Positions 18,052-27,244 of a stretch of 32,000 nt of DNA are shown one piece after another. Position numbers and translations under genes: made by a program. Under the pieces are notes generated by a model, which had not been told where the DNA came from, did no database searches, and worked only from the letters and a program-made list of their open reading frames with translations. Every line of letters starts with the position of its first letter. The stretch's first letter is position 1. The DNA is from Promethearchaeota archaeon (GTDB taxonomy: Archaea; Asgardarchaeota; Lokiarchaeia; Sigyniarchaeales; Promethearchaeaceae). The stretch lies in the NCBI GenBank assembly GCA_016933055.1, contig JAFGBS010000033.1:30001-62000 (forward strand). The letters are read 5' to 3'.

Positions 18052-18606
18052 CTACAAACAATATGGTTCTGATGTTTGGTAAGGTAATATTTGTTTGACT
18101 TCTGCATCTTCCACCGAGATAATGCCTGCTATATCATTCATTAACATATGCCATGCCTTCAAAACCGTTTTAATATCCTCACCCATAGAGAGTTTCTGCT
18201 TTAAATCTTCTGCAATCTCTTCAATGTCAATCGGTAGAACTCCTATTGTATTAATGGGAAGAAATAATAGTAATGCATAACGTTGGATTCCCCCTCTTGC
18301 TTTGGAATCGAGAACCGAAATTTTCTTGATGTGAATAATATACTTCACACCTTTACTATCGGTTAGAAATAAGGCTAATTCATCAGAGCGTGAAGAAATT
18401 GAATCCTGTAAAATATTATATTGAGTTAAGGAACTAAAAGTGGAAAAATCATAAGAAACCCCGATAAATTGAGGTCCTAATTTGTGATCATAATGAGAAC
18501 ACGCTATGCCAATTTCACTTGGGTAATTTACGCTTTCTTCTTGATCACTTTCCGATCTTGAGGGTTTAATTTGAGTGATGAAATCCTCAAGTAGATTTTG
18601 ATCCAT
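18052..18606 (-). CDS. uDENN/longin-like domain protein (folliculin/SMCR8-type)
   Basis: IACSHYDHKLGPQF and DSKARGGIQRYALLL match the two hallmark motifs of uDENN-longin domains (F/YxxxxGP and D..ARG...R). Confidence 0.7.
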   Translation of the reverse strand: MDQNLLEDFITQIKPSRSESDQEESVNYPSEIGIACSHYDHKLGPQFIGVSYDFSTFSSLTQYNILQDSISSRSDELALFLTDSKGVKYIIHIKKISVLDSKARGGIQRYALLLFLPINTIGVLPIDIEEIAEDLKQKLSMGEDIKTVLKAWHMLMNDIAGIISVEDAEVKQILPYQTSEPYCL

Positions 18607-19072: not shown

Positions 19073-19981
19073 TTATTTAGGGATTCTCAAACTCCTGATT
19101 GATTTTAAATAATTTTTAAAGAACCAGCCGACAAAGCTCATCTCATCTTCTTTTAGATTTGCCTTTTCTAATGAATTATAATAGGATTTCCTAATGTTAG
19201 CAGGGATATCAAACATAGGATATCTGTTTTGAAATAGAATGAAATTCATTAGTAATCTTGCCATTCTGCCATTACCATCATCAAAGGGGTGAATTGATAC
19301 AAAACGAAGATGCATTAAACAAGATAGAAGCACGGGATGAATCTTTCTAGGGTTTTCTTCATACCAGATAAATAATTGATCCAATAAATCTTCACAATCG
19401 AAACCCCCTGGAGGAGGTACATAGTTACTTCCACTGATGTATATTTGCCCTTTTCTTATCAAACCAGCAAAGTTAGTCCTATTTGGGTGGAGATTAAAAA
19501 TGGATTTATGCCATTTAAGAATCACACCCATACTTAAATCTGTAGTATCAATTGAATTTACCATATTTTCGTAAATTTTCATATGGAGTTTTGCTTCAAC
19601 GATATGATCGGTCGATTTATTTATTGGAACTTCTGGTTCATTTATAACCAATTCTACATCCCGTAAAGTCAATGTTGATCCTTCAATTTTGTTTGTATTA
19701 TGGGTAAATCTTATCCCGAAATCCTTTAGATGCTCTGCTCTTAGTAGACTGGGAATAGATTCTAATTTTTTATTGTAATCATTCTTTATTTCTTCGATCT
19801 CTGCTATCCATCGTTTATCCACGATTGTTTGAATAAATTCTTCCTTAATTTCTTCCATATTCTCCGGCAATTCCTTACCAATTTCTTTATCGATGGTTTT
19901 AACTTGATGTTCTTCTCGATAATTATAGATAAGGTAATAATATTCATACCCTAGAACGGATTTTTTTTTCACTGTAACCAT
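19073..19981 (-). CDS. Fic-domain protein (class II, N-terminal autoinhibitory motif) with an extra N-terminal beta-rich domain
   Basis: Canonical HPFDDGNGRMAR motif, inhibitory TNKIEG motif and an N-terminal KKSVLGYEYYYLIYNYRE...EIG segment. Confidence 0.93.
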   Translation of the reverse strand: MVTVKKKSVLGYEYYYLIYNYREEHQVKTIDKEIGKELPENMEEIKEEFIQTIVDKRWIAEIEEIKNDYNKKLESIPSLLRAEHLKDFGIRFTHNTNKIEGSTLTLRDVELVINEPEVPINKSTDHIVEAKLHMKIYENMVNSIDTTDLSMGVILKWHKSIFNLHPNRTNFAGLIRKGQIYISGSNYVPPPGGFDCEDLLDQLFIWYEENPRKIHPVLLSCLMHLRFVSIHPFDDGNGRMARLLMNFILFQNRYPMFDIPANIRKSYYNSLEKANLKEDEMSFVGWFFKNYLKSIRSLRIPK

Positions 19982-20215: not shown

Positions 20216-20260
20216 AAAATTTCTTTGCATCAATATAAGTTATTTAATTGATTAATCAAC

Positions 20261-20585
20261 ACCTATTCTGCTCTTTTGAGGGAGTAGGTAAAAGATTAAA
20301 CGTAAAACTATTATAACAATGCTCCTAACGTCAAGATCAGAAACCCATTAGGGTTCTTATGAGTTTTAGAAACGTCTATGCTACAACTTATGTAGTTGTT
20401 CGGTTGAATTACAGAATAGGCTTGTAGCGTAGTTGTAGAAGGGAAAATTCCAAATACACCGTGAAAGCCCATAGCATGCTTTTTGAGTAATAAAGATAAT
20501 TTATGCTTGTGAATAGTACAATTGATAAGAGCTCGTACCTATACCATCAATCACCTATCCGGATGAATAGGGTAATTATTAGGTA
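20261..20585. other. ORF-free, hairpin-rich region (candidate structured RNA)
   Basis: Hairpins at 20261-20289, 20342-20355, 20383-20399 and 20536-20585. Long-range complements CCTATTCTG/CAGAATAGG and CTACAACT/AGTTGTAG. Confidence 0.3.
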
Positions 20586-20608: not shown

Positions 20609-20989
20609 TCAGCTTTCTGATAGCACTGTTTTCGAAAAATCACGCCAATCTGCCAAGGAAGAAAGGATAAGCAACTTCTCCCCAGGAATACCAAATTCAG
20701 TCAAAGAGATATCCCCGATAATAATGTTTCTTCCTCGAGCTCCAATAACCTTGAAAGAAGATTCTGTTTGAGATATTTTTTCTAGAATTTTGATATTCAC
20801 AATCTCATCTAAACTCACTGCACCCTCGTATCCTTCGTATTCTTTTTCAAAATAATATTTGGCAGTATTATCCTCCCATTTCATCACCAATTGCTTTACA
20901 TTTTCGGGAGGTTTGGTGATCAACTCCCGCCATTTGAACCGAAATCTGTGCACCCCCCTTTTGTCGGAAGGATTTTCATTTTTACTCAT
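20609..20989 (-). CDS. Hypothetical protein
   Basis: 126-aa ORF with an ATG start, 26 bp downstream of the co-oriented dehydrogenase gene. No recognised motif. Confidence 0.65.
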   Translation of the reverse strand: MSKNENPSDKRGVHRFRFKWRELITKPPENVKQLVMKWEDNTAKYYFEKEYEGYEGAVSLDEIVNIKILEKISQTESSFKVIGARGRNIIIGDISLTEFGIPGEKLLILSSLADWRDFSKTVLSES

Positions 20990-24907: not shown

Positions 24908-25867
24908 ATGGAAAAACAACTAAATCAACTTATTAAAAATTTTATTGATGCTATAGAAAATGTTGATATGATCGCACTTATTGATCGTGATGGTTTGGTT
25001 CTGATGTCTATGCTAAAAGAAACTGAAGATGCTATATTAGGTGCGATCACTGCAGCATTTGACATGTTTATAGAGCGATTGAAACAAGAATTCATGGGTT
25101 CCGAGTTTATTAACATAATGACACTGGGAAAACGAAAGTTCTTTTTCGCAAGTGTTGGAGATAATGCAATATTAACTGTAGTTGCAAATGAAAAAGGTAT
25201 CGAAAGTGAAATCCGAGTGTATAGTGAGTTAGCATTGGGGAGAGTAAACCGAATTCTGTCAGGTGAGGAAAACGTTTCTCTAGAAATCCCGGGTATCATA
25301 AAAATTATGAGTAAAATGAAAGTTTTTTCGCGATTTAAGGACGGAAAACTTCCAAAAGGGATCTTTACTATTAAAGTAATTTTATGTGGGGATTATCGTG
25401 TAGGAAAAACTTCTCTAATCCGACGCTTTGTAAACGACTCCTTCGAACAAAGCTATGTAGCTACCATCGGTGTTGATATATCTCGTAGAGAAATGCGGTT
25501 TGATGAGAACTGTACGTTGAATTTTCTTATCTGGGATATCGGGGGACAGTTGCATCAAATGGCTCCTTACCGGAAGCGATTTTATAATGGTGCTCATGCA
25601 GCATTTTTAATATTTGATAAAACACGTAGAGACAGTTTTCTAAATATTAAAAAATGGACAGAAGATATTGATCGTCGCAATCCTCAAGGTATTCCAAAAA
25701 TTCTGATCGGAAACAAAACTGACTTAACTTTCGATATCGAAGTGACGGATGAGGAAATTATGGAATTATCGGAAAAATTGGGATTTGAATACATAGAAAC
25801 ATCGGCAAAAACCGGAGAGAATGTCGATTTAGCATTCAAATATATTGCTCTTCAATCTATTTCCTAA
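24908..25867 (+). CDS. Roadblock/LC7 domain fused to a Rab-like small GTPase
   Basis: N-terminal roadblock pattern (IALIDRDGLVL...AITAA). C-terminal G1 GDYRVGKTS, G2 TIG, G3 WDIGGQ, G4 NKTD and G5 TSAK. Confidence 0.92.
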   Translation: MEKQLNQLIKNFIDAIENVDMIALIDRDGLVLMSMLKETEDAILGAITAAFDMFIERLKQEFMGSEFINIMTLGKRKFFFASVGDNAILTVVANEKGIESEIRVYSELALGRVNRILSGEENVSLEIPGIIKIMSKMKVFSRFKDGKLPKGIFTIKVILCGDYRVGKTSLIRRFVNDSFEQSYVATIGVDISRREMRFDENCTLNFLIWDIGGQLHQMAPYRKRFYNGAHAAFLIFDKTRRDSFLNIKKWTEDIDRRNPQGIPKILIGNKTDLTFDIEVTDEEIMELSEKLGFEYIETSAKTGENVDLAFKYIALQSIS

Positions 25868-25870
25868 AAT

Positions 25871-26287
25871 CTACGAAAAGGTTTCTAATATTTCTTCAAT
25901 TGCGGTCCGTATTTTTTCGGTTGGTTGATGTAACAATGATTGGATCAATACCTCTTTATCATTGGAACAAATGCTCCCAAAATAACCAAATAGTTTCTCT
26001 AAGTAACGTTTTCTTTCTATTAGGTCATTAGGAATGTTTAAAAGTATTGATTTAATAAATTGAACTGTGTTTTTCGGTTCGTTAGGAATTAAAGTTTCAG
26101 CTTTTTGAATTTGGTATTCACTTTTTATTATGTCATATTTTTGAAGACGCTTGAAATAATCCCTATTTATCATTGTAATTCTATTGGGGATCGAATCTTT
26201 TGATATAAGTCGTAATAATGATAATATCTCGGACTCGATCTTTTTTATCTGCAACTCTATTTCTTCCAAGTCAAAATTTTCTAGCAT
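25871..26287 (-). CDS. Hypothetical alpha-helical protein
   Basis: 138-aa ORF with an ATG start, convergent on the GTPase gene with a 3-bp gap. Confidence 0.6.
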   Translation of the reverse strand: MLENFDLEEIELQIKKIESEILSLLRLISKDSIPNRITMINRDYFKRLQKYDIIKSEYQIQKAETLIPNEPKNTVQFIKSILLNIPNDLIERKRYLEKLFGYFGSICSNDKEVLIQSLLHQPTEKIRTAIEEILETFS

Positions 26288-26402
26288 GAGTAGGAATTTA
26301 GTATAAACTCAAAAATAAATGCTTTTTGCACTAATGAATGATTTACTGCATTATCTTACTAAAAAACAGCTAAAAAGAGGAAAAGATGAAGATGTGTTAT
26401 GT

Positions 26403-27008
26403 TTAATATACTAATTCAAAATCATAGATTTGCTGGATTAAGTTTTTCAAAGAGTTTTCAAGATGCTCTACTGAACGGATTCCTAAACAAATAATTTTGG
26501 AATTCGAGAATAATAAGAACGCACCACCTTCTTCCAAATCTCGGATGATGGCTGCGGGAAACTGCTCAGGTTCATATATGCAATTCATTAAAGTAAGGCA
26601 AGCCATTTCTAAATTAATTCTTTTATTTAAATTAGTCATAGCAACAAAATTTTGGATGGATATTGCGAATTCAGTATATTTAATCCGTGCTTTAGTAAGT
26701 ACTTTCTCGATTTGCTGCTTTATCTCAGGAATTTGGTCTTCACGTTTCAATCCAGTTATAATCATTTTCCCATTTTTGAAAATTATTACAGACACATCAC
26801 CAACTTTAAATAACACACATGGGAAACGATTGAGAGATCGAACATCAATGACGGCTTCAATTTTTGTAAAATCAATATCTTCTTGCTTATTTTCTAATTC
26901 GAGAATACCAAGCGCTACAATATTAGTAATGCGATAAGTAAACTCAATTTCCTGAGAAAGCTCGGAATTTTCCACGTAAAGTGTTGTATATTCGGAATAT
27001 TGCTCCAT
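26403..27008 (-). CDS. tbp: Divergent TATA-box-binding protein (TBP) paralog
   Basis: Two TBP repeats: ITNIVA...RFP...IIFKNGKMIITG and IQNFVA...YEPEQFPA...LLFSNSKIICLG. The start is likely the ATG at 27008 (ORF track uses TTG at 27023). Confidence 0.88.
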   Translation of the reverse strand: MEQYSEYTTLYVENSELSQEIEFTYRITNIVALGILELENKQEDIDFTKIEAVIDVRSLNRFPCVLFKVGDVSVIIFKNGKMIITGLKREDQIPEIKQQIEKVLTKARIKYTEFAISIQNFVAMTNLNKRINLEMACLTLMNCIYEPEQFPAAIIRDLEEGGAFLLFSNSKIICLGIRSVEHLENSLKNLIQQIYDFELVY

Positions 27009-27244
27009 TATTTTACCCTTCAATTTGGTTTAAGTCAATTCATCTAATTTTGTCGATAATTTGAAACACATAATTTTACTCTTATTACTTATTATGAGCA
27101 TTTTTGTTAGAAACATTACAATGCTTTTTCTGATAACATTTTAAAGTCCATTGATCTTCTATTTCTGTTGATCTTATAAAGATCTTTGAACACCATTTAT
27201 TTCGATATTTTTTTATATTGGATATTATCTGGATAATACATTTT

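Follow-up and report, generated by a model that had tools for sequence, protein, structure and literature searches.

A stand-alone Lokiarchaeal longin protein with a GP hairpin and a candidate arginine finger: fold, relatives and putative Rag-like client

The longin gene and its surroundings

The window (the whole 32,000-nt stretch of DNA that was analyzed) carries on its minus strand an intact open reading frame of 184 codons with an ATG start (Table 1). Both motifs quoted in the original prediction are present in its product, IACSHYDHKLGPQF as residues 34 to 47 and DSKARGGIQRYALLL as residues 100 to 114, and both are conserved. A homologue search (E ≤ 1e-3) recovered 51 proteins, the query counted in, that are close to it in length, and all named matches among them are from Promethearchaeota or unclassified archaea. 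They include the orthologue in Promethearchaeum syntrophicum MK-D1 (DSAG12_01735), and “Ca. Lokiarchaeum ossiferum” also has one orthologue. Comparison with an orthologue of 78% identity shows 154 base differences, 101 of them in the third position of a codon, and codon changes are mostly silent (72 synonymous, 40 nonsynonymous). Because of this third-position excess and the 51 matching proteins of similar length, the gene is, on sequence grounds, real and under protein-level selection.

Close orthologues are mostly 155 to 202 amino acids long. Among 40 related genomes searched, 10 of the 13 that belong to the same family gave strong matches (E below 1e-30), against 0 of the 27 that belong to other families. 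The source genome is 3.76 Mb and 91% complete, and a loose form of the two-motif pattern matches four of its ORFs, against 1.2 expected from shuffles. That pattern by itself is weak evidence, and the case stands on conservation and fold. A promoter scan, which relies on a bacterial consensus, gave nothing above chance.

The original prediction also pointed to a roadblock-GTPase fusion about 6 kb away. The fusion exists, its GTPase part is Rab-like, and it lies 6.3 kb from the longin gene, but a functional link between the two was rejected: in the source genome, 589 of 2,673 ORFs (22%) have some GTPase-like ORF (a set of 62, including a few translation-type GTPases) no more than 6.5 kb away, which places this distance at chance level, and a roadblock-Rab gene is found near an orthologue at just one other locus, in a close relative.

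Several other features of the window were recorded. Of 81 genomes from the order, 8 encode a conserved 126-aa protein, whose gene immediately precedes that of the longin in two relatives. Its model is confident (pLDDT 80.8); a PH-domain identity was unsupported, the fold search giving a best Z of 3.5 and no clear match. A segment of about 2 kb is missing from a close relative and includes a Fic-domain gene with an intact HPFxDGNGRxxR motif. The same segment holds a repeat of about 250 nt, of which the genome contains nine further partial copies (69 to 83% identity), possibly a mobile-element remnant. The TBP gene and a 138-aa gene travel together and lie 2 to 8 kb from the longin gene in five loci.

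Table 1. Locations of the features discussed (positions refer to the window unless prefixed by a contig or locus handle)
Feature	Location	Strand	Remarks
Stand-alone longin gene, 184 aa	18052..18606	−	Ordered domain ~30-160; N- and C-terminal tails flexible
GP hairpin, codons 39-45 (Y39 to G44-P45)	18472..18492	−	Strand 1-strand 2
Candidate arginine-finger loop, codons 100-106 (DSKARGG)	18289..18309	−	With Arg104
Roadblock + Rab-like GTPase fusion	24908..25867	+	Real; membership in longin system not supported
Conserved 126-aa protein	20609..20989	−	
Segment missing from relative L014	18630..20630		
Fic-domain gene	19073..19981		
Repeat of ~250 nt	near 20240..20490		
TBP gene and 138-aa gene	25871..27023	−	
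Stand-alone paralogue, arginine loop lost	C27:68629-69081 (L002:1471-1923)		
Roadblock-longin protein	C22:47027-47920 (L051:7028-7921)		
GP/ARGG longin with extra C-terminal domain	C5:69220-70104		
Rab-like GTPase	C5:70177-70740		Same strand as preceding longin
Rag-like GTPase, 530 aa	C2:213592-215184		
Longin-Rag-roadblock protein	C10:21030-22361 (L052:7031-8362)	−	
Apparent two-gene operon of the sister family	L074:5277-6866		13 similar loci: L077, L081, L082, L085, L086, L087, L090, L093, L097, L102, L103, L104, L106

Fold and conserved motifs

The AlphaFold2 model has a pLDDT of 78.5 overall and of ~90 for residues 31 to 160. Its strands (33-40, 44-51, 76-82, 88-99 and 107-117) and helices (59-71, 128-140 and 145-159) follow each other as strand-strand-helix-strand-strand-strand-helix-helix, which is the longin order, and the 184-aa protein is thus predicted to adopt the five-stranded longin fold. 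In a Foldseek search of the PDB, the top three matches were all chains of folliculin complexes (E 7.8e-5 to 5.6e-4), the best being 8dhb_J (E 7.8e-5). In a VIA-align search, which is independent of Foldseek, chains of SEA and GATOR1 ranked first; judging by entry and length, we take these to be Npr2/NPRL2. They gave Z values of 10.3 to 10.5 (one with Z 10.4, rmsd 3.5 and 127 aligned residues, a second with Z 10.3, rmsd 3.2 and 125 aligned), followed by the Lokiarchaeal longin 8yqg (Z 10.0, rmsd 3.7, 122 aligned) and the folliculin chains (Z 9.2 to 9.6; 8dhb_J, Z 9.6, rmsd 3.3, 127 aligned). Longins that are not GAPs score near these values (Lst4, Z 9.2 to 9.8; VAMP7, 8.9; DENND1A, 8.6). Atlas searches led to NPR2, Folliculin, SMCR8 and Avl9 clusters.

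At the sequence level, Pfam Folliculin (PF11704) matches residues 79 to 117 with 12.8 bits, below the cut-off of 23.3; 37 of 43 family members match it weakly (best E, 1e-3), and a sister protein of MK-D1 barely exceeds the curated cut-off (23.4 versus 23.3 bits). Together, the model, the fold searches and these weak Pfam matches support the prediction of a longin domain related to the catalytic ones in FLCN, SMCR8 and NPRL2; neither a nonlongin fold nor a set of profile hits devoid of DENN/longin families was found. Profile searches run with three alignments against the sequences in the PDB reached none of FLCN, SMCR8 and NPRL2. The DENN part of the uDENN-longin label did not survive: a DENN/dDENN module is absent, the protein stops about 25 residues past the longin domain, and the gene downstream of the orthologues varies from locus to locus. 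By Pfam score and domain content, the window protein is neither a member of the folliculin family nor a DENN protein.

The possibility of a split or truncated folliculin was rejected. Orthologues are alike in length, and the top longer homologues are longin-Rab fusions (8,000 candidates scored, with a profile that contained one such fusion).

GAP longins have been defined by a GP motif before strand 2 together with an arginine finger, and GP is described in the same account as specific to the GAP longins FLCN, NPRL2, SMCR8 and C9orf72, adaptins, TRAPP and DENND proteins being without it (PMC12290439, section 2.6). In the model, G44-P45 is at the start of strand 2, and R104 belongs to the strand 4-5 loop, which connects strand 88-99 to strand 107-117. 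In an alignment of 43 sequences, D100, A103, R104, G105 and G106 are invariant (R104, 43/43), and Y39, G44 and P45 are conserved in at least 90%. FLCN contacts RagC through F10, H14 and P16, and its F10D substitution abolishes GAP activity (PMC9473554). The aromatic-to-proline spacing of Y39-P45 equals that of F10-P16, the loop that touches RagC, and the structural alignment with 8dhb_J begins at model residue 31 and chain residue 2, so that Y39 would fall on F10 if the first 15 aligned positions are ungapped. The equivalent of FLCN R164 in SMCR8 is R147, also in the strand 4-5 loop (10.1101/2020.04.16.045708). From its topological position, R104 may correspond to both; the match rests on topology rather than on an alignment because the PDB profile searches stopped short of FLCN, SMCR8 and NPRL2.

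The arginine could instead serve binding or loop structure in a noncatalytic GTPase-binding longin, i.e., an adaptor, a scaffold or half of an exchange factor. We consider this improbable. Most longins are GEFs or platforms (PMC10933270), the fold scores of non-GAP longins are nearly as high as those of GAP longins, and other basic residues (K42, R73, K95, R109 and K138) are also at least 95% conserved in the close family. Against it, when 25 selected Asgard longins covering five architectures are compared, the sole invariant columns are GP and RG, and GP is the feature reported in PMC12290439, section 2.6, as particular to GAP longins.

The observation itself is not new, and nothing sets the window copy apart. 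Asgard longins resembling NPRL2 were described in 2020 (Liu et al., 10.1101/2020.10.19.343400), and Asgard longins of FLCN/SMCR8 type with GP and an arginine finger were published in 2025 (PMC12290439, Traffic 2025, section 2.6, Fig. 5D), which removes the novelty of the original prediction. That section deals with 15 sequences and a heimdallarchaeial reference protein and proposes GAP action on Rag or Arf-related GTPases. With its Asgard origin, predicted longin fold and arrangement of GP and arginine, the window protein belongs, by sequence and model, to the class described there; its stand-alone family is Lokiarchaeal, the reference heimdallarchaeial.

Among eukaryotic proteins, the longin domain of folliculin and Lst7 (PF11704; PDB 8DHB, 6NZD and 6ULG), which forms the catalytic half of the RagC/D (Gtr2) GAP, shares with the window protein the fold, the aromatic-x4-GP spacing and, by topology, an arginine at the strand 4-5 loop; Lst7, too, consists of a longin domain only. 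Unlike folliculin, to which it is 13 to 16% identical and whose Pfam cut-off it does not reach, the window protein has no DENN module and no identified FNIP/Lst4 partner. The presumed NPRL2/Npr2 longin of GATOR1/SEACIT gives the highest VIA-align Z, and the SMCR8 longin of C9orf72-SMCR8-WDR41 has a GP and an arginine loop as in the window protein; identity to these proteins is ~10 to 13%, and the window protein lacks their C-terminal domains and an identified NPRL3 or C9orf72 partner. The Lokiarchaeal roadblock-longin 8YQG, for which no published description was found in the literature, matches the broad Asgard profile (E 4e-5) and the fold and keeps GP. It crystallized as a longin dimer, so the class is able to dimerize, but it differs in its roadblock fusion and in the absence of the arginine-glycine loop. 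The source genome encodes a roadblock-longin homologue of 8YQG and 8YQK that retains GARGG, which the crystallized homologue has lost.

The wider longin class

Seven GP-type longins were detected in the source genome, six of which keep the arginine-glycine loop; they are stand-alone, follow a roadblock domain or are fused to an Arf/Rag-like GTPase. Many further longin-like proteins are encoded, and gene order fixes no partner. The class profile matches 121 of 251 Asgard genomes, usually 4 to 10 times per genome of the same order, and, as it was built mainly from Lokiarchaeia, misses do not equal absences. In 83 proteins the longin domain is fused to HisKA-like helices.

In a domain tree (midpoint-rooted, with sequences above ~72% similarity thinned), the stand-alone family, the HisKA-like fusions and an arginine-less paralogue form one supported group (100/98), and GTPase fusions, including the Rab-fused longins, are apart from the stand-alone family. 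Long branches, the midpoint root and the lack of eukaryotic rows make this tree unable to order stand-alone and fused forms. Since close stand-alone orthologues are confined to one family among the genomes searched and the tree holds no eukaryotic sequences, the “minimal ancestral” status originally proposed is unproven. One-family orthologues and the grouping within a large Lokiarchaeal class, often fused to GTPases, indicate that the stand-alone form is one branch, restricted to its lineage, within an expanded class; none of the results marks it as ancestral.

The arginine-less paralogue is stand-alone, keeps GP and comes after a receiver-domain gene; it is possibly a noncatalytic partner. 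Elsewhere in the source genome, a longin with GP, ARGG and an extra C-terminal domain is followed, 73 nt downstream, by a Rab-like GTPase gene.

An arginine-finger GAP for Rab-like GTPases, such as the roadblock-Rab fusion in the window, would agree with the occurrence of the same longin class in 107 fusions to Rab-like GTPases with GP and RxG kept, with some Rab GAP activity in human C9orf72-SMCR8 and with the paralogue located 73 nt upstream of a Rab-like gene. This reading is very unlikely, given that the Rab-fused longins form a clade separate from the stand-alone family and that the 6-kb distance is at chance level and conserved in one close relative only.

Gene neighborhoods and proposed role

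Orthologues share no conserved operon; their commonest neighbors are malic enzyme (9/16 loci) and a glycerol-3-phosphate dehydrogenase-like cluster (9/16). In MK-D1, the next gene after the orthologue encodes a Rag-like GTPase of ~490 aa, and a Rag-like protein of the same size lies 2 kb from the orthologue in one other genome. A longin-Rag-roadblock protein is encoded 0.8 to 13 kb from the orthologue in five other loci; in the source genome this protein is 26 kb off, and the other Rag candidate is on a different contig. The sister family combines the longin with kinase-like helices, and at 14 of its 26 loci the gene is immediately followed, on the same strand and after a gap of <50 nt, by one for a Rag-like GTPase of ~293 aa. 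As the genomes are related, these counts show conservation, not statistical significance. The ~293-aa GTPase has RagA and Gtr2 as best PDB matches and aligns as a shortened version of the ~490- to 530-aa family; its best match in the source genome is a 530-aa protein whose G domain is N-terminal. The Rag-like GTPases retain the switch II glutamine (DxxGQE). The Rag neighborhood of the sister family, of which no description was found in PMC12290439, is added here and suggests, from gene order, a named candidate client GTPase.

The kinase-like helices raise the alternative of a two-component input module, in which the longin would be a PAS-like sensor or adaptor addressing histidine kinases rather than GTPases directly. 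The nearest relatives are the HisKA-like fusions (clade 100/98; HHalign 96.9%; weak Pfam HisKA), which on sequence inspection occur in islands with large kinase-like and small receiver-like proteins; the arginine-less paralogue follows a receiver-domain gene; and fusions of NPRL2-like longins to two-component domains have been described (Liu et al., 10.1101/2020.10.19.343400). However, the 184-aa protein is without kinase-like helices, none of these genes adjoins the orthologues examined, sister-family genes mostly have that of a Rag-like GTPase as their direct neighbor, and the HisKA-like part appears, from its consensus, to lack the phosphorylatable histidine. We regard such a module as quite unlikely.

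Sequence, model and analogy with eukaryotic complexes slightly favor a GAP subunit that acts in trans, through an arginine finger, on a Rag-like GTPase. Fusions of the same domain to Rab-like GTPases and, in the source genome, to an Arf/Rag-like GTPase also speak for it. The protein is predicted, from model and fold search, to be a five-stranded longin, with the GP hairpin and Arg104 occupying the FLCN/SMCR8/NPRL2 positions suggested by alignment and model. By analogy with eukaryotic complexes, the longin may pair with itself or with a noncatalytic longin to form a GTPase platform, the GP hairpin would touch the GTPase, and Arg104 would enter the nucleotide pocket and speed up GTP hydrolysis. 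Gene neighborhoods make the Rag-like family with the N-terminal G domain, represented by the 530-aa protein, the likeliest client, and the longin-Rag-roadblock protein is a second candidate. The cited section of PMC12290439 puts forward a GAP role of Asgard longins only as a possibility, and no report of such activity was found in the literature searched. Counting against a GAP, the solved relative 8YQG and the arginine-less paralogue are both without the arginine, and the eukaryotic SMCR8 longin by itself has no GAP activity. A complex prediction of longin residues 27 to 166 with the longin and G domains of the longin-Rag-roadblock protein, GTP and Mg (score 0.01, mark 0.32) is evidence neither way.

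A broader proposal, which we hold tentatively and think doubtful as a whole, is that the protein acts, as a free subunit, as an arginine-dependent GAP on the Lokiarchaeal Rag-like GTPases encoded beside it and its sister family. If true, Asgard archaea would already possess a working longin-Rag switch of the folliculin/NPRL2 type built on a single small chain, and the sister form would link it to two-component signaling via its kinase-like helices. Whether the longin arginine-finger switch acting on Rag GTPases and mTORC1 is older than eukaryotes has already been asked in print, and the question becomes easier to test because this family offers a small, soluble, single-domain protein with an orthologue (DSAG12_01735) adjoining a Rag-like GTPase gene in the cultured MK-D1.

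Two further observations concern the Rag-associated longins. The N-terminal WDxxxG of the longin-Rag-roadblock protein resembles W33-D34 of C9orf72, and about ten source-genome proteins match the profile of its N-terminal longin. The apparent sister-family operons, in which a GP/arginine longin-HisKA-like gene precedes that of the ~293-aa Rag-like GTPase, often form part of islands that also hold kinase-like and receiver-like genes and additional Rag-like ones, and such an operon may lend itself better to testing than the window gene does.
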